A program made the translations under genes and the position numbers. Source: a virus. From it: a stretch of DNA of 64,000 bases. The notes below the pieces were generated by a model. It was not told the DNA's origin. It made no database searches and worked only from the letters and a program-made list of their open reading frames with translations. The stretch lies in the UHGV virus genome UHGV-1384413; one strand, 5' to 3'. Each line of letters begins with the position of its first letter. Positions within the stretch are counted from its first letter, which is position 1. Shown in pieces: positions 3,966 through 53,206 of the stretch.

Positions 3966-4075
3966 TGCCACGTTAATTAATCCCTTTAGTGAAGATTTGA
4001 AGCCAGCGGCCTGGCGTGAGGGATTCAACACAGAAAGATTTATTTTCAGGCCTGACCTTGAGGAATTTTATAACA

Positions 4076-4201
4076 ATGGATCGAACAACGACAGAGATAA
4101 TTTTTCTTGTAATGTGCGTGGTGATAATACTCCTGGGGGCCATTACAAACCACGTCACTGCTAACAGGAGGAAAGGGGGAGACGATGACAACCAAGGATA
4201 A
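4076..4201 (+). CDS. small membrane peptide (41 aa)
   Basis: ATG with GAGGA RBS; single hydrophobic helix. Confidence 0.3.
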   Translation: MDRTTTEIIFLVMCVVIILLGAITNHVTANRRKGGDDDNQG

Positions 4202-4304
4202 GCCCCGCACCGATAAGGTGCGCCGTGTTATGGTATGGCTTGAGATCATCGCCCTTGAAATATTGTTAGGCGTAGGGATGTACTTTATCGCTGTAAGTAA
4301 CTGA
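4185..4304 (+). CDS. small membrane peptide (39 aa)
   Basis: ATG with AGGAGGAAAGGGGGAG RBS; hydrophobic C-terminus; followed by terminator. Confidence 0.35.
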   Translation: MTTKDKPRTDKVRRVMVWLEIIALEILLGVGMYFIAVSN

Positions 4305-4306
4305 TA

Positions 4307-4340
4307 ACGGCCCCCAATCCCTGGGGGCTTAACTTTTTCA
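4307..4340 (+). terminator. rho-independent terminator
   Basis: GCCCCCA-ATCC-CTGGGGGC hairpin followed by T-rich tract. Confidence 0.55.
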
Positions 4341-4440
4341 AAAATTTTTCTTCTAGGGTGTTGCAATCCGGTCCGGAATATGGATAATAACAATCAACGG
4401 GGAGCAATCCCCACCACAAAGACTAGAAAGGAGAAACAAA

Positions 4441-4641
4441 ATGAGTAACAATATCCGCGTTATTAACTTCAAAAAAGAAGAAAAAATTGCCGTGCTGATT
4501 GACGGTCAAGAAATCTTTAAAGGTGATTATGAAGATCATCAAACGGCGATTAGTATCACTCGCGTGATTGGTTACCATAATTTTTACCCTCAAGGCGCTG
4601 AGGCAGCAGTAAAACGAATTAAAGAGATTGTAGGCCTGTAA
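4441..4641 (+). CDS. hypothetical protein (66 aa)
   Basis: ATG with AAAGGAGAAACAAA RBS; followed by hairpin element copy 3. Confidence 0.55.
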   Translation: MSNNIRVINFKKEEKIAVLIDGQEIFKGDYEDHQTAISITRVIGYHNFYPQGAEAAVKRIKEIVGL

Positions 4642-4642
4642 A

Positions 4643-4689
4643 ATTTATTTTTAGATGGCCTTGATTCCAGGGCCATCAATAAAGTAAAT
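4643..4689. repeat. conserved 45-bp hairpin element, copy 3
   Basis: Near-identical to 277-323 and 907-953. Confidence 0.6.
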
Positions 4690-4732
4690 TTAAACCCTGT
4701 TAAAATAATCAGTGCAAAAAGGAGTAATGATC

Positions 4733-5044
4733 ATGTTTATCCAGGCTAATAATCTTTATTTCTTTGATGGTCAGATCGTAGACGGCGTGGAGGTGGAAAT
4801 CACTGGGTGCCCTGGCGGTCAGGTTATGACTTTTCGGAATAATGCCTTTGATGATTCTCATATCGTTATGAGAATGGAAGTTAGTAAGCTGGATGATAAG
4901 AAAACATTGATTGACTATTCCGTCAAAGATCATCCAGACTACCACATGATCTATGGTGATTTGTGCATTGTTGACCGTGACAAGGTGAACGGCATTGTTA
5001 TAGCCATTGTGAACGATGTTTTCTCTGAGTATTCCGGCAAATGA
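4733..5044 (+). CDS. hypothetical protein (103 aa)
   Basis: ATG at 4733 with AAAAGGAG RBS. Confidence 0.55.
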   Translation: MFIQANNLYFFDGQIVDGVEVEITGCPGGQVMTFRNNAFDDSHIVMRMEVSKLDDKKTLIDYSVKDHPDYHMIYGDLCIVDRDKVNGIVIAIVNDVFSEYSGK

Positions 5045-5079
5045 TGCAAAATAAGGCCCCTGGCAGGGCCTGCAGCGAT

Positions 5080-43686: not shown

Positions 43687-44970
43687 TCATTCCAGAACCT
43701 CCCAAGTGTCAGGGTTAACATTTCGGACGCAGATGCCGACAGGGAATTGGTAGTTGTTGTCTTCTGTCCTTGCTTGATATTTGAAGGTGACAAACTTGCC
43801 GATCATTTCCTGCATCCTGTCATAGCTACGCTCCTCGTGCGTGCCTTTCATCTTCATTTTAACAACGATACCTTCCTTGTCAACGCAGATAAGAACACCT
43901 TCATCATTCTTATCTTTCTCAACGTCAATAACTTTCACCTCAGCATCGTTGAACTTTTTCCATTTCAATGCTTCAGATGTTCGCTGACCATATTCATATT
44001 TACCGCAGAAGTTACGCATGATAGTACCTTCATATCCTTCGGACATGAATACACCAACAGATTCTTCGCAATGATCAACTGTGTACGCAAGCTCTGCGTC
44101 AACAACCTTGATATGGTCAAGCATCAGGGTGGTAATGGTATCTTCTGCATCCATAAGATCCTTGCATCGTCCAGATTCTGTTTCTGGATCCCACCATACC
44201 TTGTCACTAGGGATGTCGAAAATATGATACTCTAAGTCATAGCTACAGTACCCTCCGTAACGCAAATCATCACGAATAGGCTCAACATCAACAGGAATAT
44301 CTACCTTATTGAAGTTTTTGTATGTTGATAAGCCTGCCTTAATTGCGGCATGACGGCGTTTTTTATCTGCCTCGTAGTCTTTATCGATCTCGGCCTGAAT
44401 CTCTTCCTGTGTGCGCCACCGTTTAGCAAGAGACACTATTTTCTGCAGAGGCAGACCATGAATATAGATCTCTCCGTCGAGCTGTTTAATCCCGGTGGTG
44501 AAGTGGAAAGAACGAAGTTGCTCCAGAAGCTTTCCTTGAATAGGGTAGGACTTATTACCACGGGAAATAAATTTAGGCTCACCGTTTTGGAAAACAACCA
44601 GTAGACGAAGGCCATCTAATTTACGCAAAATCCAGCAAGGTAATTTAAGTGCCTTTCCACGCTTCAGGTAGTCATGCACCAACATGGGTAAAAGGTCAAC
44701 ACCCTGCTCGCAATCTTCCATATTTTCAACATATCCCAGACGGACTTGTTTTTCCCACTTACTGATCGCTTCCAGCTCAGCCTGTTGCTCAGCTGTAGTT
44801 TCATTGGCACGACCCACGTTCTTAGGTGTGCAGATCGTCTCTTTGTATTGCAGTTTACCATCAAGCTTGCCAAACTCTACAATAACCTTATCACCATCCG
44901 TGAATACTTTCCACTGCTGGTAGCTGCCATCTTTGTTCAGTGCGTACAGTGTTGTTTTGATCTGATGCAT
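43687..44970 (-). CDS. ATP-dependent DNA ligase
   Basis: Motif I KLDGLR (KxDGxR), motif IV-like EGYEGTIMR, motif V-like LKWKKF. Confidence 0.7.
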   Translation of the reverse strand: MHQIKTTLYALNKDGSYQQWKVFTDGDKVIVEFGKLDGKLQYKETICTPKNVGRANETTAEQQAELEAISKWEKQVRLGYVENMEDCEQGVDLLPMLVHDYLKRGKALKLPCWILRKLDGLRLLVVFQNGEPKFISRGNKSYPIQGKLLEQLRSFHFTTGIKQLDGEIYIHGLPLQKIVSLAKRWRTQEEIQAEIDKDYEADKKRRHAAIKAGLSTYKNFNKVDIPVDVEPIRDDLRYGGYCSYDLEYHIFDIPSDKVWWDPETESGRCKDLMDAEDTITTLMLDHIKVVDAELAYTVDHCEESVGVFMSEGYEGTIMRNFCGKYEYGQRTSEALKWKKFNDAEVKVIDVEKDKNDEGVLICVDKEGIVVKMKMKGTHEERSYDRMQEMIGKFVTFKYQARTEDNNYQFPVGICVRNVNPDTWEVLE

Positions 44971-45534: not shown

Positions 45535-45574
45535 AACTTTCTACCTCACTTGCATACTTTCCTAAACAAGTAAA

Positions 45575-45598
45575 GCCGGGATCGCCCCGGCTATGTTA
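45575..45598 (-). terminator. putative rho-independent terminator
   Basis: GCCGGG-GCGATC-CCGGC hairpin followed by T-rich tract on minus strand. Confidence 0.5.
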
Positions 45599-46312
45599 TT
45601 AAATATATTCTGTTACATCCTTGAAGCTTGAAGGCTTCATAATCTTACCTTTACTGTCGAGGAATATGATAACTTTATTTCCGTTGTAGAATTCTTCTTT
45701 AGCAACAAAACCTTCATAGCGACCATCAAAGCGTCGCTCAAGATCTTTAATCTCCAACTCGATAAGTTGTTCAGCAGGCATATCTGCACTGGCACCGTGT
45801 GAATACCGCAGATGGTTGACGCGTGCAAACTTGCTGTCATTAGATTTTAGAACCTTCCGCATCATCCCGCACACATCACCGCGAAGCTGGAACAGCAAAG
45901 CTGTTGACAACTCTGCTAAGCGGTAAGCAGACGCTCTTTGCTTAGAGGTATTTTTCGCAGCGATCAGTGTATCATAAAATTCACCGATCTTAAACTTAAG
46001 ACCTCGCGGATTATCAAACAGGTTTGACCACTTTTCATGGTTATCGTTAACAAGATAAGCGGCATAACTTGTGACAACGTGAAGATCGCAGGCCTCTTTT
46101 AGGAGATGATCCCCACCATCACCTTTCTCCAACTCTTCCAAAACTTCATTGAACTCTTCCTCAATGAAACTCAGCTGAAGTTCGAATGGTGTGTATGATT
46201 TTTTCACTTTAGCTGCTACACGGTTCCAATTTTCCACCCAGTTGGCAGACCAAAGGTAGTTTTCAGGCTGAGACAGTTTTTCCAAGTTGTCAATCAGTTT
46301 AGTATTCAGCAT
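45599..46312 (-). CDS. MazG-like nucleotide pyrophosphohydrolase candidate
   Basis: EEEFNEVLEELE...EACD fits the EExxE...ExxD MazG pattern. Confidence 0.35.
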   Translation of the reverse strand: MLNTKLIDNLEKLSQPENYLWSANWVENWNRVAAKVKKSYTPFELQLSFIEEEFNEVLEELEKGDGGDHLLKEACDLHVVTSYAAYLVNDNHEKWSNLFDNPRGLKFKIGEFYDTLIAAKNTSKQRASAYRLAELSTALLFQLRGDVCGMMRKVLKSNDSKFARVNHLRYSHGASADMPAEQLIELEIKDLERRFDGRYEGFVAKEEFYNGNKVIIFLDSKGKIMKPSSFKDVTEYI

Positions 46313-46326
46313 TAAAAGGCCTCCGC

Positions 46327-47088
46327 TTACAGTTCCATAAAGTTTTCTACGATGTCAATGAATGTTTTATCAGAGAAAGCGTCAACAGCCCCGTTAAACC
46401 AAACTGGGATGCCGCGATCCTCATACTGGTAAATGTCACTACGTGAAATGCCATTCTCCCCTAAATGCTGTGAGTCGTATTTGTTAACGATCAGCAGTTT
46501 GGTCCCCTTATTACAGGCAGGGAATAGCTCCCAGTTAAAATTGATAACTGTGTTGGAGCACCCTATAAGGATAACCATATCATTGCTCGTCAGAGAAGTC
46601 AACAGGTCATACATGTCTGTATACTTTGGAGCTACTTCTCCGAAGAACACGACATTAGGCTTAACCCAAGTATACTTGCTTGCATCTACCTCAGAGTATC
46701 CAATGTCTTTAATGACGTTACTCCCTTCATCATCCTCGTAGACTATTTCTGGCAAATATCCGTGGACATGTAAAATATCTTCATGTTTTACACCAGCACG
46801 CTCCAGCAAATCATCTACATTGGTTGTCAGGTTGATCACGCGACCAGACCAGCGGGAATACCATTCAGCGATCCGGAGATGTGCAAGGTTAGGATCAACA
46901 CTGCCCAGAGCTACACGCCGTGCATTGTAAAAGTCATGAACCTTATAGTAGTTCTTGGCAAAGGTGTGGATGTTACACACCTCATCGATGCTGAAATTCT
47001 CCCACATTGCAGTGCCACCAGATCGGAAAGTTGGGATACCAGATTCAGCGCTCAAACCAGCACCGGAGATAATGATCAGTCGTCGCAT
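46327..47088 (-). CDS. Sir2-family (sirtuin-like) NAD-dependent protein lacking zinc-ribbon cysteines
   Basis: GAGLSAESGIPTFRS, FYNARR, TTNVDDLLERAG, HVHG, VVFFGE blocks match sirtuin catalytic core. Confidence 0.7.
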   Translation of the reverse strand: MRRLIIISGAGLSAESGIPTFRSGGTAMWENFSIDEVCNIHTFAKNYYKVHDFYNARRVALGSVDPNLAHLRIAEWYSRWSGRVINLTTNVDDLLERAGVKHEDILHVHGYLPEIVYEDDEGSNVIKDIGYSEVDASKYTWVKPNVVFFGEVAPKYTDMYDLLTSLTSNDMVILIGCSNTVINFNWELFPACNKGTKLLIVNKYDSQHLGENGISRSDIYQYEDRGIPVWFNGAVDAFSDKTFIDIVENFMEL

Positions 47089-47096
47089 AAGTGTCC

Positions 47097-47447
47097 TCAG
47101 TAGATGTTTTGTTTAATCTCTATTCCAAACTTTTTAAACGAGTCAGCAGCAAGCATGAATTTACGAGCAGCTGATGGGTTAGAAGTATGCACGAAAATCT
47201 TCACGTTGTCAACTACAGGAGGCTTACCAAATATAAATTTTTCCTCCAGCATAGATAGGCAATCGTACCCTTCAAATACCTCTCCAAGGTCGTTGTCCAT
47301 GTGCCACTCAGAAACGCGCCTGTAGAGCTTTCCCTTATCGTTAATAAAATCCATAAACTCAGAGGAATTCTTTAGCCAAAGAGCATCTGGGAGCCCATAA
47401 TTTGACGGATCTCTCAAGTCATCCAGCCACACAATCAACTTCTTCAT
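47097..47447 (-). CDS. hypothetical protein (116 aa)
   Basis: ORF between Sir2-like and Rnl-like genes. Confidence 0.5.
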   Translation of the reverse strand: MKKLIVWLDDLRDPSNYGLPDALWLKNSSEFMDFINDKGKLYRRVSEWHMDNDLGEVFEGYDCLSMLEEKFIFGKPPVVDNVKIFVHTSNPSAARKFMLAADSFKKFGIEIKQNIY

Positions 47448-48358
47448 TGCATATAGTCCTCGTTGTGGAAATAGTAGTCAAGTATCTCACGACGTTCTTG
47501 CTCCAGGAGGCAGTTCCACACATCTTCTGTGTAATTGCTACGAATGAAGTTTACCATGCCATAAAACTCTTCGTCAACACGTTTAAAGATATCATCATCC
47601 CAAATCTTCCAAGCTTTACCCCTCATTACGGCCTTCCGTGCCAAATAGTATGGAGACTTGATCTTCAGCTGCAAATCATAAGGGTAGTAAGGCTTACGAA
47701 TCATATACCCTTCACCTCTTGTTTCTGCAGCTAATTCTTTTGCATAGCTGAACGGAATTTCACGCACAGTGTGAGGACGTTTTGCACCAAGGTATTTGGC
47801 AATCCCATCTAAAGCTGCTTCTGGTAGCATTATTCCAGAATCATTATATCTGCAACCTATCAAATATGCGCCATGATCTTCCTGAACAATATGCGGATCT
47901 GAAGGGTGGCAAATTTCAAACATGAATGTCATGTTTTCATGGCCCATAACCCTCTTGATAAGATCTAAATTACCACATTGCTCCTGGATTGTTTCTTTTG
48001 CGAGGTTACAATATGGAGAATCAAGAGACCCGGTTGTTGAGAACAATAGTTCACCTTTATGAGATGATACCACACCAAGGAATCCGTTCTTTTTCTCTAC
48101 CGCCGTCACAAGTTTATTGTCAGGCAGGTTGGTGGAATTTTCTCCCAAGTTAAACACTTTTGTGAAGGGCCATGCCACAACATTTCCTTCATTACCGACA
48201 ACAATGCCTCGGCACTCCAGCAAACGAGGAGACAAATGCCATAAATTGTTGTAGAATACTTTTCTGGCATATTTATAGATCTTTAACCCAAGATCCGGGT
48301 AATATCTGCTGGTTACAAGACCTTTGTCAACTAGGTCGTCTGCATTAAAATACTTCAT
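47444..48358 (-). CDS. RNA ligase-like nucleotidyltransferase (Rnl family candidate)
   Basis: KKNGF (KxNG motif I variant as in tRNA ligases); divergent from polynucleotide kinase gene. Confidence 0.5.
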   Translation of the reverse strand: MKYFNADDLVDKGLVTSRYYPDLGLKIYKYARKVFYNNLWHLSPRLLECRGIVVGNEGNVVAWPFTKVFNLGENSTNLPDNKLVTAVEKKNGFLGVVSSHKGELLFSTTGSLDSPYCNLAKETIQEQCGNLDLIKRVMGHENMTFMFEICHPSDPHIVQEDHGAYLIGCRYNDSGIMLPEAALDGIAKYLGAKRPHTVREIPFSYAKELAAETRGEGYMIRKPYYPYDLQLKIKSPYYLARKAVMRGKAWKIWDDDIFKRVDEEFYGMVNFIRSNYTEDVWNCLLEQERREILDYYFHNEDYMQ

Positions 48359-48424
48359 TATACATTCCTCATTTGTTATTTTGTCCCTTTATCCTGCCAC
48401 ACAAATAACTTGGTGTCAACACTT

Positions 48425-48455
48425 GAAATTAACAAAACAGTTAGGTATACTATCA
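48425..48455 (+). promoter_or_regulatory. sigma70-like promoter (TTGAAA-17-TATACT) in divergent intergenic region
   Basis: Hexamers upstream of kinase gene. Confidence 0.4.
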
Positions 48456-48479
48456 TTAAAATTAAAACGGAGAGTTACT

Positions 48480-48890
48480 ATGTCTAAAATGCTATATATC
48501 GTGCGTGGTCTACCAGGGTCTGGCAAATCAACACTGGCAAATGCGCTATCTTTAGAAGGTCTGTATCCACATTTTGAGAACGATATGTTCTGGTACGACG
48601 ATGACGGCAATTACAATTGGGATGCAAGTAAAGTAACACTTGCAGCAAAATGGTGCAAAGATAACGTAGAAGATATGATGCGTATGGGCTACGACCGTAT
48701 CGTGGTAAGTAATACGTTTACAAAAGAAAAATATGTGCAAGAATATATTGACATGGCGATCAGTCATGGATATAGTTATACCGTGATCGTGGTTGAAAAC
48801 CGCCATGGTAATAAAAGCATTCATGATGTTCCAGACAGGGTTGTGGATCGTATGGAACGCCAGCTTAAAAACTGCATTAAACTTAAATGA
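48480..48890 (+). CDS. polynucleotide 5'-kinase-like P-loop protein
   Basis: N-terminal YIVRGLPGSGKSTLA Walker A typical of Pnk kinase domains; ACGGAGAG RBS. Confidence 0.6.
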   Translation: MSKMLYIVRGLPGSGKSTLANALSLEGLYPHFENDMFWYDDDGNYNWDASKVTLAAKWCKDNVEDMMRMGYDRIVVSNTFTKEKYVQEYIDMAISHGYSYTVIVVENRHGNKSIHDVPDRVVDRMERQLKNCIKLK

Positions 48891-48897
48891 GGAATGT

Positions 48898-49452
48898 ATG
48901 AAATACTTTGTAACAAGCGACACACACTTTCTCCACCAGCGGGTAATGGAGTTCGACTCATGTCAAAAACACAGATCTCAGTATGATCACAATCTTGACA
49001 GTATGAATGCGGGAATCATCACCAAGTGGAACTCTGTTGTGTCACCTGCAGACACTGTGTTTCACTTGGGGGATATTGCGTGCACTAATGATAAGAATAT
49101 CAACAAATTGCTTCCAGATGTTCTAAATATGTTGAACGGACATATTATTCTTGTTCGTGGTAACCATGACACAAGGACGACTGTCAGAATTATGAAAGAG
49201 TTCGGTCATGAGGTTGTAGATTATTACGAGCTTCGCCACAACAAGAATTTGATCTGTATGAGCCATTACCAGTTTGCAAAGTGGAACAGAAAGCCTCACG
49301 GATCAGTCCAACTGTTCGGTCATGCTCACGGAACCACACAGCAGTTGTTTGGCAGGCAGTTTGATGTCGGTTGGGATGTGTGGGGGAGACTCTTACCATT
49401 AGAAGAGGCATACCGTATTGCAATGAGTCTTGCTATTGACAGCGGGGAGTAA
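48898..49452 (+). CDS. calcineurin-like metallophosphoesterase
   Basis: SDTHF, GDIA and GNHD motifs; GAGGA RBS. Confidence 0.7.
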   Translation: MKYFVTSDTHFLHQRVMEFDSCQKHRSQYDHNLDSMNAGIITKWNSVVSPADTVFHLGDIACTNDKNINKLLPDVLNMLNGHIILVRGNHDTRTTVRIMKEFGHEVVDYYELRHNKNLICMSHYQFAKWNRKPHGSVQLFGHAHGTTQQLFGRQFDVGWDVWGRLLPLEEAYRIAMSLAIDSGE

Positions 49453-49499
49453 TCCCTGCTATTTTAAAGAAAATTGCCACACAAGGAGAATCAGGAGAT

Positions 49500-49850
49500 A
49501 TGAAAGATGGGGATAAGCTGCTATATCTTAAAGTCCCCCTTGAAATACTGTCTATGTCAAAAGTTTTGAATGACACAACTGGGGAGGTTGTTGTTCTTGA
49601 CTTATATGACAAGATCGTATACTGCTACCTGCACAACTGGTATAAGCTTGGAGAAAATTCACGCTTCACACCCAGCACAAGGAAAATTGCAGCAGATGTT
49701 GGGATAAAGAAAACAAAAGCAGCAGCGTGCGTTAAAACTTTAGAATGTGCAGGAGTGGTTGAAATATCCACACAAGGGAGAGGTAAAAGATGCACATTTT
49801 CCAAAGTTTTGCCACCAGAAGAAGTTATTCGAATGTCAACAACTGGTTAG
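49500..49850 (+). CDS. small DNA-binding protein (winged-helix/HTH-like), candidate iteron-binding protein
   Basis: TPSTRKIAADVGIKKTKAAACVKTLECAGVV resembles an HTH; immediately upstream of iteron array. Confidence 0.45.
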   Translation: MKDGDKLLYLKVPLEILSMSKVLNDTTGEVVVLDLYDKIVYCYLHNWYKLGENSRFTPSTRKIAADVGIKKTKAAACVKTLECAGVVEISTQGRGKRCTFSKVLPPEEVIRMSTTG

Positions 49851-49923
49851 ACCAGTAAAAACTTAAACATCTGTACTATAAGGATTTGTATGTTTTATGT
49901 TCACTCTGGAACAGAGGTTAGTA

Positions 49924-50007: not shown

Positions 50008-50150
50008 ATAAAGAATATAACTAAAATAACTAAATAATAAAAATAAAAGATCTAGCACTTATGGTACTAAAGTACATATACTTAACTTATGTAGAATATA
50101 CTAGATCCTAAGTACCATGTTTTAAATTTATTACTTATTACTTATTATGG
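50008..50150. other. AT-rich tract with short direct repeats (candidate DNA unwinding element)
   Basis: ATAACTAAA and TTACTTATT repeats and a GGTACT...AGTACC inverted repeat directly after iterons. Confidence 0.5.
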
Positions 50151-50154
50151 GTAG

Positions 50155-50400
50155 TGTCGGCCCTTCATTGGCACTCGCCTACGAGGGGCGAGATGCCGGG
50201 CCTCCGTAGTGCACACAATAACAGAAGTGCATACATGCAGGACTGTTAACATGTGTGGGAGCGAAGCGATAGCGCAGGCCAAAGGCCGAGCACTAATGTG
50301 GATCACCGACGAAAGCTTGCCAGCGCCGGAAGGAGTCGGTTGAGAGCCTCCCGCGCGAGTTCTGATAAAGTTTATGTGTGGAAACTGACAAGAAGGCTCC
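50155..50400. other. GC-rich ORF-free island (candidate structured RNA or DNA element)
   Basis: Composition contrast with AT-rich flanks; no ORF with RBS. Confidence 0.3.
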
Positions 50401-50517
50401 TAAATCGCTCCACAGCTATATAAACTATACCAAGTAAGGCAATCGCACCAGTTTGATAGAAAAGCTCGTTACAAAGCGATACAGTGAGTTTTTCTATAAC
50501 TTGAAGAGGAGGCTGCT

Positions 50518-51096
50518 ATGAGTTCACGCAAAGATGCCCGTGAAAAGATTGCAAAACGTTATCAGGATGAAGAACAGATGGAGAAAACTTTCAAGTGGAA
50601 GCCAGGTTTCCAGCGTAATCATTCTAACGCCCGTGATCGTAAGCATCCTGATAAGTGGCTAACACCGCCAAATGATGGCATGCAGGTTGGTGATGAGAAG
50701 GAGCTATCACCTGGAAAAGATGGCAACTACATTCGCACTAAGGACGCCAGTCCAAAGGATGACAGCTATCTTGTAGATAAGGTTCTTGATGGTATTGATG
50801 TAGATGTTGACACTGCACGAAACCTTTTTCTTGGTTGGTATCGTACAGGGTTTTTCGACATCAAGGCTATTCGTCGTGTTTGTGATATTAAAAAGTCTGC
50901 ATATGATGACGACTCGTTACATCGCACCCTGAGACAATATTCAGAAAGATATGGTCATCCGGTTATCACTCTTGACGATGTTAACGAAGTGATGTATCAT
51001 GCAGAGGTTGTTGCAGGCAGATTTGGTGATGCATATCTTGATATCCTTTCTGCAAACGATGAGGTAATGTTGAATAAGATTTACTATGAACGTTGA
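50518..51096 (+). CDS. hypothetical protein (192 aa)
   Basis: ATG with GAAGAGGAGG RBS. Confidence 0.6.
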   Translation: MSSRKDAREKIAKRYQDEEQMEKTFKWKPGFQRNHSNARDRKHPDKWLTPPNDGMQVGDEKELSPGKDGNYIRTKDASPKDDSYLVDKVLDGIDVDVDTARNLFLGWYRTGFFDIKAIRRVCDIKKSAYDDDSLHRTLRQYSERYGHPVITLDDVNEVMYHAEVVAGRFGDAYLDILSANDEVMLNKIYYER

Positions 51097-51371: not shown

Positions 51372-51614
51372 ATGTTTAAGGTTAAGCTCGTTTTCCGTTC
51401 CATGAATGAGGATTATTTAGAAGATGAAGGTGAATTTCGTGCACTAGATGATGCAATAGATTTTGCCAACGACTTAGCTTGTATGAATACTGGTTATGGT
51501 TTATGTTGTTGGGATGGTGGTGTTCAGATTGGTGATAGCAAGATCTTCTACTTCTACCCTGAGCCCGATAACAAACAAATTAAGTATGTTTTATTTATTT
51601 GTGCTTTACAATAA
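51372..51614 (+). CDS. hypothetical protein (80 aa)
   Basis: ORF-track ORF. Confidence 0.5.
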   Translation: MFKVKLVFRSMNEDYLEDEGEFRALDDAIDFANDLACMNTGYGLCCWDGGVQIGDSKIFYFYPEPDNKQIKYVLFICALQ

Positions 51615-51639
51615 GGTTGTTTTCGTGTATCATGATGAA

Positions 51640-51900
51640 TATCCAATTTAAAGATGAGTTTGATGGCTTTATCTCCGGATGCTTTGAAACAGGGTTCGGA
51701 GAAGACTGAGTTCCCCTTAGAGGGCTTGATAGTGCACCACACTTAAAATGGTAGGGGCAGCCAGCACATGACGATGTGACCCCAGCCAACCTGTAATAAG
51801 GTCGAGCCAGAGCGCGGTAATGGGTATCTGGTAACCCACTTGTTGGGTCTTGCTGGTCCAGGACGCTGGGCAAGTCGCAGGGAATACCACCCTGCGGCGA
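51640..51900. other. GC-rich ORF-poor island (candidate structured ncRNA)
   Basis: Overlapping Pro/Gly-rich minus-strand ORFs in all frames typical of non-coding GC-rich sequence. Confidence 0.3.
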
Positions 51901-51903
51901 ACT

Positions 51904-51933
51904 TGACAATCAGTATTTGCCGTGATAAAATCC
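51904..51933 (+). promoter_or_regulatory. sigma70-like promoter (TTGACA ... GATAAAAT)
   Basis: Consensus -35 and extended -10 upstream of gene at 51960. Confidence 0.5.
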
Positions 51934-51959
51934 ACCTATCACGTGATAATGGAGGAAAC

Positions 51960-52298
51960 ATGGCGGATACAACTAAAAAGCGTCGCCGTAGAGGCAGACC
52001 TCTGAAAGAGGAGTCCAACGCCATTCAGCTAGAGAAGAACATTCTTGATATGAAGGAATCTTTTATAGCGATGGTTCCAGAAGCTCACAAAGTTTTAAGA
52101 GAGCTGATGTTGGACCCGAAAACCAAACAAAATATTCGTCAAAGCATTGCAGAGTATGTTCTTGATAAGGCAGACCGAATGCAGGAAGAATATGATGAGA
52201 TGTTTGGTGAAGAGGAAGAGGTGGTAGTAGAAGAGGCTGAAAAACCAGCACCTTTTATGCCATTTACCACAGAAATACAGCCTGTTGGCAATAGTTAA
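51960..52298 (+). CDS. basic/acidic DNA-binding-like protein; possible terminase small subunit
   Basis: N-terminal KKRRRRGRPLK basic stretch; GGAGGAAACATG RBS; upstream of terL region. Confidence 0.3.
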   Translation: MADTTKKRRRRGRPLKEESNAIQLEKNILDMKESFIAMVPEAHKVLRELMLDPKTKQNIRQSIAEYVLDKADRMQEEYDEMFGEEEEVVVEEAEKPAPFMPFTTEIQPVGNS

Positions 52299-52394: not shown

Positions 52395-52469
52395 GCCCTG
52401 TTAGCTTAGTGGATAAAGCAGCGGCCTTCTAAGCCGTTGACACTGGTTCGAGTCCAGTACGGGGTGCCA
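52395..52469 (+). tRNA. tRNA-Arg (anticodon TCT)
   Basis: Manual cloverleaf: acceptor, D, anticodon loop CTTCTAA, T-loop TTCGAGT, CCA encoded. Confidence 0.8.
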
Positions 52470-52473
52470 AATT

Positions 52474-52560
52474 GGGGAGTTATCCCGTAGAGGTAGCGGT
52501 GTAGACTGTAAATCTATTGTCATTGCGACTCGGGTGGTTCGACTCCACCACTCCCCACCA
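52474..52560 (+). tRNA. tRNA-Tyr (anticodon GTA), long variable arm
   Basis: Acceptor GGGGAGT/ACTCCCC, anticodon loop CTGTAAA, T-loop TTCGACT, CCA encoded. Confidence 0.75.
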
Positions 52561-52674
52561 AATTTACATTTTTAAATGCATAAATTATACAGATAATGAC
52601 ATTGATATTTATCGTCGTTTATACTAGTCACTAACTGCTCGAAAATCAGTGTCATTATCAGTGTAATTTATAAA

Positions 52675-52765
52675 GGAGAGTAGGGAGCAATGGTGCTCAA
52701 GCGGTCTTGAAAACCGTCCCATTGAGGACGACTTGATGATGGTTCGATTCCATTACTCTCCGCCA
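52675..52765 (+). tRNA. tRNA-Ser (anticodon TGA), long variable arm
   Basis: Acceptor GGAGAGT/ACTCTCC, anticodon loop CTTGAAA, 20-nt variable arm, CCA encoded. Confidence 0.8.
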
Positions 52766-52863
52766 TATTGTTAACCTTGTAATTAAGCGAAAGCCGGAAG
52801 CAGAACCGGATTATCAAATGTTACAGTCGTCATCGCCGACTAGCAACATGGTTAACATTATTC

Positions 52864-52960
52864 GCTAGGTAAGCCCTTTGGCAAGGGCGAGGATTTTTAA
52901 TCCTGAAAATAGACGAGGTAGTCGTTGAATACATAGGTGGTTCGATTCCATCACCTAGCA
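52864..52960 (+). tRNA. atypical tRNA-like gene (possible anticodon TTT) with about 30-nt variable region
   Basis: Perfect 7-bp acceptor stem, D-arm and T-arm; anticodon stem only 4 bp; no CCA encoded. Confidence 0.45.
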
Positions 52961-52966
52961 CCTTTT

Positions 52967-53042
52967 GCTGATGTAGCACAATTGGCAGTGCAATTGATTT
53001 GTAATCAATAGGTTGCAGGTTCAAGTCCTGCCATCAGCACCA
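52967..53042 (+). tRNA. tRNA-Thr (anticodon TGT)
   Basis: Canonical cloverleaf, anticodon loop TTTGTAA, CCA encoded. Confidence 0.85.
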
Positions 53043-53043
53043 T

Positions 53044-53118
53044 GGCCCTGTAGCTGGAAGGTTCAAGCAAGCGACTCATAATCGCCAGACGGTGGTTCAA
53101 TTCCACCCAGGGCCACCA
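53044..53118 (+). tRNA. tRNA-Met/Ile2 (anticodon CAT)
   Basis: Acceptor GGCCCTG/CAGGGCC, anticodon loop CTCATAA, T-loop TTCAATT, CCA encoded. Confidence 0.75.
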
Positions 53119-53129
53119 AATAATAAATA

Positions 53130-53206
53130 CTCCGCGTAGCTCAGCTTGGTAGAGCGCCTGATTTGGGATCAGGAGGTCGAGTGTTCGAATCACTCCGTGG
53201 AGACCA
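53130..53206 (+). tRNA. tRNA-Pro (anticodon TGG)
   Basis: D-arm TAGCTCAGCTTGGTAGAGC, anticodon loop TTTGGGA, T-loop TTCGAAT, CCA encoded. Confidence 0.8.

Follow-up and report, generated by a model that had tools for sequence, protein, structure and literature searches.

Which task is shared by three adjacent genes for a ligase, a kinase and a phosphoesterase is the question raised by positions 47444-49452 of the virus genome UHGV-1384413, of which 64,000 nucleotides were analysed (the window, to the whole of which all coordinates of open reading frames, ORFs, refer). The trio comprises an ATP-dependent RNA ligase of 304 residues with an Rnl1/Trl1-type core (47444-48358, minus strand, ATG start, VEKKNGF), a stand-alone P-loop kinase of 136 residues that is presumed to be an RNA 5'-OH kinase (48480-48890, plus strand, GLPGSGKST) and a dinuclear metallophosphoesterase of 184 residues from an aq_1665-like subfamily (48898-49452, plus strand; SDTHF, GDIA, GNHD, MSHY and GHAHG). 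All three ORFs were found where a preliminary description of this DNA had placed them, and their catalytic motifs were intact. Healing and sealing of RNA ends, those of tRNA in particular, against RNA-cutting defences appeared as their most likely function, with a probability of roughly 70 %. The reading is built on homology and fold, on the intact active sites and on the conserved linkage of the genes, two of which also occur fused; from these we infer that the substrate is RNA rather than DNA, that tRNA is the client, which chemistry takes place at the 3' end and that the system serves counter-defence.

The ligase was recognised as a member of PF09511 (RNA_lig_T4_1; E = 1.1e-14, 55.3 bits against a cut-off of 28.3) and of phrog_562 in PHROGs. 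A database search gathered 438 ligase-related clusters, nearly all of them ~300 residues long and located on phage-sized contigs. Searches of the PDB with the single ligase and kinase sequences gave nothing meaningful and family profiles were needed; the profile of 40 ligase relatives matched T4 Rnl1 (2C5U; 7.5e-13 in hmmsearch). K89-x-N91-G92 of motif I aligned with the K99 region of T4 Rnl1, E148 of motif III with E159, E216-G217 of motif IV with E227-G228 and K232-x-K234 of motif V with K240-K242. Since these residues were invariant across 201 ligase homologues and none of motifs I, III, IV and V was missing, the Rnl-type nucleotidyltransferase of the preliminary description could be upheld. 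R50 (LECRG) was likewise invariant (201/201) and K67 (PFTKVFN) was a lysine in 199 sequences and an arginine in two; they are the counterparts of T4 R54 and K75 and were also aligned to Trl1. In T4 Rnl1 these two residues of the N-terminal subdomain contact the gamma-phosphate of ATP.

The AlphaFold model of the ligase reached a predicted local distance difference test (pLDDT) score of 91. Its last 45-60 residues formed a short helical module which matched neither the C-terminal domain of T4 Rnl1 nor that of Trl1, and the NCBIfam equivalog for T4 RnlA (TIGR02308) gave 39 bits against a cut-off of 242. As judged from its sequence, the ligase is an Rnl1/Trl1-type adenylyltransferase with a C-terminal module of its own and not a strict orthologue of T4 Rnl1.

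The kinase displayed the PF13671 (AAA_33) domain (E = 2.7e-10, 41.1 bits against a cut-off of 27) and matched phrog_2071 and phrog_505, described as an 'ATPase' family and as 'polynucleotide kinase'. Its family is very large, since at least 7,988 of 8,000 candidate clusters scored below 1e-3. A mechanical ORF list contained a longer, TTG-started version from 48324; the ATG at 48480 is preceded at 5-10 nucleotides by a GGAG ribosome-binding site, and GenBank records begin the gene there. R9, the Walker A residues, D35, N78-T79, E106-N107-R108-H109 and H115 were invariant in 41 homologues, and the Walker A motif GxxGxGK[ST], which reads GLPGSGKST from G10 onwards, was of the Pnk type. The best PDB match of the kinase profile was the tRNA-splicing RNA 5'-OH kinase of Mucorales (9D8A, 1e-6), followed by Pnkp1, T4 Pnk, PSTK and CthPnk. 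In the hidden Markov model (HMM) alignment the invariant D35 coincided with the general base D35 of T4 Pnk (D38 in Cth).

Structure comparison led to the same clade. The AF2 model (pLDDT 92.6) was most similar in Foldseek to CthPnk, with template modelling (TM) scores of 0.74-0.77, and to T4 Pnk (0.72-0.75), with PSTK and mammalian PNKP among the other matches, and both profile and fold agree with the polynucleotide kinase proposed at the outset. Adenylate, shikimate and nucleoside kinases matched through the P-loop only or at low TM scores, so that an identity as a deoxynucleoside monophosphate or adenylate kinase, which the preliminary description had named as contrary to its own assignment, was rejected. 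The predicted acceptor is a 5'-OH polynucleotide.

In the phosphoesterase, PF12850 (Metallophos_2) and PF00149 (Metallophos) were detected above their curated thresholds; in PHROGs it matched phrog_547 (E = 5e-51). All five motifs of the superfamily (DxH, GD, GNH[DE], H and GHxH) were conserved in 32 homologues; H10, D59, N89, H90, H123, H142 and H144 were invariant, as were G58, G88 and G141, and D8 was conserved in at least 90 %. The third gene does encode an intact calcineurin-type metallophosphoesterase. Aquifex aq_1665 (1XM7, 1.6e-23) was the sole strong solved match of the family profile in the PDB, GpdQ-like phosphohydrolases and YfcE-like proteins being weaker ones (E <= 0.1). Lambda phosphatase, the phosphatase domain of CthPnkp and Pnkp1 were not among the matches at that threshold; the likeness to bacterial Pnkp/Hen1 phosphatases that had been suggested therefore holds for the superfamily and fails for the subfamily, which is aq_1665-like. 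The enzyme is presumed to heal 2',3'-cyclic-phosphate or 3'-phosphate ends.

Conserved gene linkage was surveyed on 80 IMG/VR viral contigs bearing ligase relatives of 38-90 % identity; a ligase relative is encoded on 301 viral contigs. ORFs were searched with iterated HMMs built from the window proteins, and the 80 loci were collapsed at 70 % identity into 36 ligase clusters, called lineages here and counted within 3 kb of the ligase. Kinase and phosphoesterase were present within 2 kb in 68/80 and 61/80 loci, respectively, and together in 55/80. By lineage, the kinase was found in 28/36, the phosphoesterase in 30/36, both in 26/36 and neither in 4/36. Because only one kinase match and no phosphoesterase match lay more than 3 kb away from the ligase, the outer flanks act as an internal control. 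Both partners always occupied the ligase strand, except in the rV5 type of phage to which the window belongs (see below), and the genes were often overlapping or abutting. The divergent layout of the preliminary description was thus correct for the window and for rV5-like phages, whereas elsewhere the three genes are co-directional.

In 13 loci (L039-L040, L044-L057) the kinase was fused to the N terminus of the ligase in a single ORF of 421-432 residues (for example L039:9560-10825). Because the fusion partner is an RNA ligase, these loci give indirect support to the predicted 5'-OH polynucleotide kinase activity. An independent, kinase-seeded sample lent further support to the linkage. Phage contigs from freshwater metagenomes (L083-L087) carried the kinase-phosphoesterase pair as overlapping or abutting genes at 4001-5055, with a 31 % identical phosphoesterase, and in L083-L086 an Rnl5-type RNA ligase followed ~1.8 kb downstream; in L089 the kinase abutted an Rnl1-like ligase. 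Being combined with a different ligase family, the kinase-phosphoesterase pair looks like a portable healing cassette.

These enzymes could act in succession. When tRNA or another RNA is cleaved by a metal-independent ribonuclease of the host or of a competitor, the break carries a 2',3'-cyclic phosphate on one side and a 5'-OH on the other. The 136-residue kinase would phosphorylate the 5'-OH, the metallophosphoesterase would open the cyclic phosphate, remove the cyclic or 3'-terminal phosphate, or do both, and the Rnl1-like ligase would adenylylate itself on Lys89, pass the AMP to the 5'-phosphate and join the ends. Defences that cut RNA figure prominently in the conflict of phages with their hosts; among them are the anticodon nucleases PrrC and RloC, PARIS, tRNases associated with retrons or CRISPR, and toxin RNases.

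Several observations weigh against RNA repair. At the kinase, the arginine by which T4 Pnk (R38) and CthPnk (R41) contact the acceptor nucleotide has no counterpart: the window protein displays D35-M-F-W38, and position 38 was not conserved in the family, being W, F, Y or H in the alignment rows shown. Asn78 is found where T4 Pnk has Asp85. With neither Arg38 nor Asp85 conserved, the acceptor specificity of the kinase and its mode of binding are presumed ones. The phosphoesterase subfamily has no characterised member. Loci with the kinase-ligase fusion had no phosphoesterase of this family within 10 kb, and Pfam recognised no alternative 3'-healing enzyme in 10 neighbouring ORFs that were scanned, which gave thioredoxin, DNA ligase, Rnl5-type ligase and phosphoribosyl pyrophosphate (PRPP) synthetase; in L039 a ligase of the Rnl5/DraRnl type (PF09414 with the oligonucleotide-binding fold PHA02142) and PRPP synthetase lay just downstream. 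Two of the five kinase-seeded contexts (P0164 and P0171) had neither a ligase nor a phosphoesterase partner in the DNA at hand, and their unannotated neighbours matched none of six family HMMs. The literature searched contained no biochemical or genetic test of these proteins. Finally, an ATP-dependent DNA ligase was encoded within 3 kb of the RNA ligase in 12/36 lineages, which makes a function on DNA ends conceivable.

According to that last explanation, kinase and phosphoesterase would clean 5'-OH and 3'-phosphate ends of DNA in the course of replication or repair, on behalf of the ATP-dependent DNA ligase nearby or of the Rnl1-like enzyme. The window itself encodes an ATP-dependent DNA ligase (43687-44970, minus strand) within the same leftward gene block as the RNA ligase, and DNA is among the substrates of both T4 Pnk and mammalian PNKP. 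The phosphoesterase weakly matched PdeM, a DNA-damage phosphoesterase, but its 20.6 bits lay far under the cut-off of 150 and this identity was rejected. Moreover, the ligase to which the kinase is fused is an RNA ligase and not a DNA ligase, and where the kinase-phosphoesterase pair has another companion, it is again an RNA ligase, of the Rnl5 type. Processing of DNA ends was considered decidedly improbable.

The ligase was not the only gene on its strand, and the unit that had been described as three genes turned out to be larger. By its sequence layout, the ligase heads a leftward operon ligase-cREC-sirtuin-MazG-like. The start of the gene for the cREC protein (cyclic-phosphate-processing receiver domain; 116 residues, 47097-47447, minus strand) overlaps the ligase stop by four nucleotides. 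The protein belongs to PF20274 (E = 4.5e-14, 53.3 bits against a cut-off of 27), and its receiver-like acidic residues D9, D10, D51 and D53 were invariant in seven homologues, as were S89 and K96. The cREC domain was defined, predicted to be a cyclic phosphodiesterase and linked to RNA ligases by shared operons by Iyer et al. 2021 (PMC7824862). It is followed by a Sir2-family sirtuin of 253 residues (46327-47088, minus strand; PF02146, E = 7.6e-27; phrog_2162, E = 1.2e-108), for which a KptA/Tpt1-like action on RNA 2'-phosphates has been predicted (PMC9503650). The last gene encodes a MazG-like nucleotide pyrophosphohydrolase of 237 residues (45599-46312, minus strand; phrog_671, E = 5.4e-22), which had no match in the Pfam scan and which is named as part of the V5 neighbourhood (PMC9503650). 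Directly downstream, at 45574-45592, the operon ends at a GC-rich hairpin that is terminator-like on both strands, with a stem of eight pairs (six of them G-C) and then a T-rich tail on the minus strand.

Kinase and phosphoesterase were the first genes of a rightward block. The 121-bp spacer separating ligase and kinase (48359-48479) contained sigma-70-like sites together with the GGAG ribosome-binding site. The candidates on the kinase side, at 48423-48451 and 48429-48456, are consensus matches only, and no comparable site was found for the ligase side within the spacer. At ~48400 the GC skew changed sign and the cumulative skew reached its minimum, at the point where leftward genes give way to rightward ones.

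The window is a Vequintavirus, an rV5-like phage of E. coli, and was 96-99.6 % identical to rV5-like genomes. Its 3.6-kb segment at 46300-49900 was present in 120 records of a phage collection at 80-99.6 % nucleotide identity, the highest value being that of phage ECP32; ~118 further records displayed 90-99 %, and all but one of the 120 at least 90 %. Eighteen matching records were named 'Campylobacter phage' with Campylobacter jejuni as host, which would mean either a surprising host range or mislabelled records. Nucleotide differences to two relatives were concentrated at third codon positions and mostly synonymous; between the ligase genes of the window and of L003, 112 codons differed synonymously and 30 non-synonymously. 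This pattern marks the three ORFs as real, constrained genes rather than chance ORFs, and as judged by codon comparison they are under purifying selection.

GenBank records name the ligase 'RNA ligase (1 and tail attachment protein)' and its neighbours 'polynucleotide kinase', 'ATPase', 'phosphoesterase' and 'Sir2-like', while a single record calls cREC a 'cyclic-phosphate processing receiver domain-containing protein'. The tail-fibre attachment wording in many ligase entries, in the style of T4 gp63, is inherited by name only. The cluster is already known from this annotation and from a published prediction for phage V5 (PMC9503650); with the genes annotated and the neighbourhood published, the present analysis is a confirmation and not a discovery.

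In rV5-like phages, cyclic-phosphate or 2'-phosphate ends are probably also dealt with by a second route, linked to NAD+, through the co-transcribed genes for cREC, sirtuin and the MazG-like enzyme. They were not general companions of the ligase: cREC or sirtuin was near it in only 3-4/36 lineages, and the constant partners of the family are kinase and phosphoesterase, not sirtuin and cREC. Among 150 neighbouring ORFs, the commonest other ones were PRPP synthetase (seven), NAPRTase/NAMPT (five) and Macro-domain proteins (three). L089 brought several of these together, a 4.6-kb stretch (L089:3187-7768) containing ligase, kinase, PRPP synthetase, NAPRTase, Macro and DNA ligase genes along with two unannotated ORFs. 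With such neighbours, the NAD+ theme reaches beyond the sirtuin-bearing rV5 group.

The same theme would fit a different role, in which phosphoesterase, cREC, sirtuin and MazG-like protein mainly serve counter-defence by destroying or consuming small-molecule immune signals or derivatives of NAD+ and ADP-ribose, and stand beside the ligase through co-regulation and not through a shared pathway. The islands do bring NAD+-salvage and Macro genes together, no member of the phosphoesterase subfamily has been characterised, and according to Iyer et al. cREC, Macro and Nudix process ADP-ribose derivatives as well as RNA ends. Yet the phosphoesterase tightly follows kinase and ligase in 30/36 lineages and stays behind the kinase even where the RNA ligase is of another family, and for the kinase at least, the fusion demonstrates a tie to the ligase. 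Destruction of signals was accordingly held to be improbable as the main role of these genes.

The other explanation that draws on cREC and sirtuin retains RNA repair and changes its chemistry. The ligase, like fungal and plant Trl1, would need a 3'-OH/2'-phosphate end; cREC, the phosphoesterase or both would act only as a cyclic phosphodiesterase leaving the 2'-phosphate, and the sealed junction would keep this phosphate until the sirtuin or host KptA/Tpt1 removed it with NAD+. The ~300-residue phage ligase family would then be a bacterial-virus counterpart of Trl1, with His156 and Lys242/Arg246 sensing the terminal 2'-phosphate. For the profile comparison, Trl1-LIG (Rnl6) sequences were taken from PDB alignments with yeast Trl1 as bait, and the Trl1 profile is PDB-derived only. 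Hhalign related the ligase family to it with a probability of 90-94 % (E = 1.6e-6 to 1.6e-7), pairing N91 with N150 of Cth and the invariant H156 (DPHIV) with H227 (EEHIL) of Cth, positions at which T4 Rnl1 has D101 and I167. In Chaetomium Trl1, the triad H227-R334-R337 enforces specificity for the 2'-phosphate: it binds a sulfate that mimics the terminal 2'-phosphate, and in its mutants RNA adenylylation was 60- to 580-fold slower (PMC6379707, PMC11404444).

K242 and R246, located on the helix after motif V, were invariant in 199/201 sequences, and a forced global alignment placed R/K241 with R334 and R246 with R337. This pairing is of low confidence, and beyond motif V a second alignment mode gave a different result. 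The operonic position of the ligase with cREC and with a sirtuin that is predicted to be a KptA analogue (PMC9503650) is in favour of a Trl1-like chemistry, as is the recurrence of Macro and NAD+-salvage genes beside the ligase in other lineages. Against it, the ligase family was closer to T4 Rnl1 (7.5e-13), Trl1 not being reached by hmmsearch at E <= 1, and the Trl1 C-domain that carries the two arginines had no detectable counterpart. In addition, H156, K242 and R246 were invariant everywhere although cREC or sirtuin was nearby in so few lineages, and KptA did not figure among the 25 commonest of the 43 Pfam families in the neighbour census. A yeast-style route was therefore regarded as unlikely, though not far-fetched, and a Trl1 counterpart that senses 2'-phosphates in this phage family as unlikely to the same degree. 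If true, it would explain where the internal 2'-phosphates in the RNA of bacteria such as E. coli could come from, a gap stated in PMC6097658, and it would give the sirtuin a role resembling that of an RNA 2'-phosphotransferase. A real Trl1-like signature would also bear on the puzzle why bacteria keep Tpt1/KptA (PMC6097658).

Possible clients of the RNA repair proposed here are encoded nearby. Seven tRNA genes were identified by ARAGORN and Rfam at 52395-53206 on the plus strand (Arg-TCT, Tyr-GTA, Ser-TGA, Lys-UUU-like, Thr-TGT, Met/Ile-CAT and Pro-TGG). The cluster begins 2.9 kb past the end of the phosphoesterase gene, close to the ~3 kb first estimated. One of its members, the 99-nucleotide tRNA-like gene at 52864-52962 (plus strand), could not be named by ARAGORN, which gave it a four-base 'anticodon', and scored 35.5 bits with the Rfam tRNA model. 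By eye, its loop UUUUUAA yields the anticodon UUU (Lys), and it displayed an extra arm of ~25 nucleotides, unusual for a tRNA-Lys. It is annotated as tRNA-Lys in phage MaxBurger and is unannotated in FV3. As tRNA-Lys(UUU) is the target of PrrC, an odd phage copy near the repair module may matter.

The proximity of this cluster, at 2.9 kb, and its one tRNA with an extra segment of ~25 nucleotides also suggest that the enzymes might mature the phage's own tRNAs, for instance by removing an insertion from the 99-nucleotide Lys-like tRNA, instead of repairing damage; Trl1-type enzymes splice tRNA in eukaryotes. However, no splicing endonuclease was seen, and in the fold of 52864-52962 the extra segment formed a variable arm and not an intron of the anticodon loop. 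The chance that tRNA maturation is the function of the module was rated as slight indeed.

Two GC-rich stretches lie between the phosphoesterase gene and the tRNA genes, at 50100-50550 and 51600-52050. Their GC content of 0.50-0.52 departs from the local value of ~0.40, and spurious ORFs overlap there in several frames; related genomes annotate tiny ORFs only, or none. Neither stretch had a match in Rfam, and the fold z-score for 51640-51940 was only -1.6.

The proposed RNA repair by this locus can be compared with four known systems. The first is the neighbourhood of phage V5 itself. Section 3.7.3 of Iyer, Burroughs, Anantharaman and Aravind 2022 (PMC9503650) describes it as a predicted NAD+-utilising RNA repair system, within a type 2 sirtuin neighbourhood 'prototyped by Escherichia phage V5 and Proteus phage Mydo'. 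The gene set is the same (T4-like tRNA ligase, cREC, sirtuin, nucleotide kinase, MazG-like protein and calcineurin-like phosphoesterase), and all six genes lie within 45599-49452 of the window. There is no essential difference; the emphasis differs in that PMC9503650 calls the phosphoesterase 'occasional', whereas it accompanied the ligase in 30/36 lineages here.

The second is the Trl1 and Tpt1 pathway of fungi and plants. His156 of the window ligase aligned with the 2'-phosphate-sensing His227, and as in that pathway the ligase is accompanied by one enzyme for cyclic phosphates and another that uses NAD+. The Trl1 C-domain, a 2H cyclic phosphodiesterase and Tpt1/KptA are absent here, and the Arg-Arg pair was only tentatively matched. 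Mucorales possess a split system in which ligase and RNA 5'-OH kinase are separate, stand-alone proteins (PMC11571804, PMC10946426), and it is their kinase 9D8A that was the best PDB sequence match of the window kinase profile.

Pnkp/Hen1 of Clostridium thermocellum and Pnkp1-Rnl-Hen1 of Capnocytophaga likewise combine a kinase of the Pnk clade with a metallophosphoesterase and an ATP-dependent RNA ligase, and CthPnk was the best structural match of the window kinase. Their activities reside in one polypeptide or in a complex with the Hen1 methyltransferase, which is lacking here, and their phosphoesterase belongs to a different subfamily from the aq_1665-like one of the window.

T4 Pnkp and Rnl1 follow the same logic, from 5' kinase through 3' healing to an ATP-dependent ligase with an Rnl1-type core. 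The kinases share fold, Walker A motif and catalytic Asp, but the window kinase has no equivalent of Arg38 of T4. As already indicated in the preliminary description, the arrangement is unlike that of T4 Pnkp, which is a fusion of the kinase to a HAD (DxDxT) phosphatase; in the window the kinase of 136 residues is free-standing and the candidate for 3' healing is a metallophosphoesterase encoded by a separate gene. The window ligase is also 70 residues shorter than T4 Rnl1 and without a recognisable T4-type C-terminal tRNA-specificity domain. To our knowledge, hardly any phage repair system other than T4 Pnkp/Rnl1 has been supported by experiments. The present locus represents a widespread family whose healing enzymes differ from those of T4, and its value is that of a clear experimental target in a tractable group of E. 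coli phages, including members of BASEL such as Bas54 MaxBurger.

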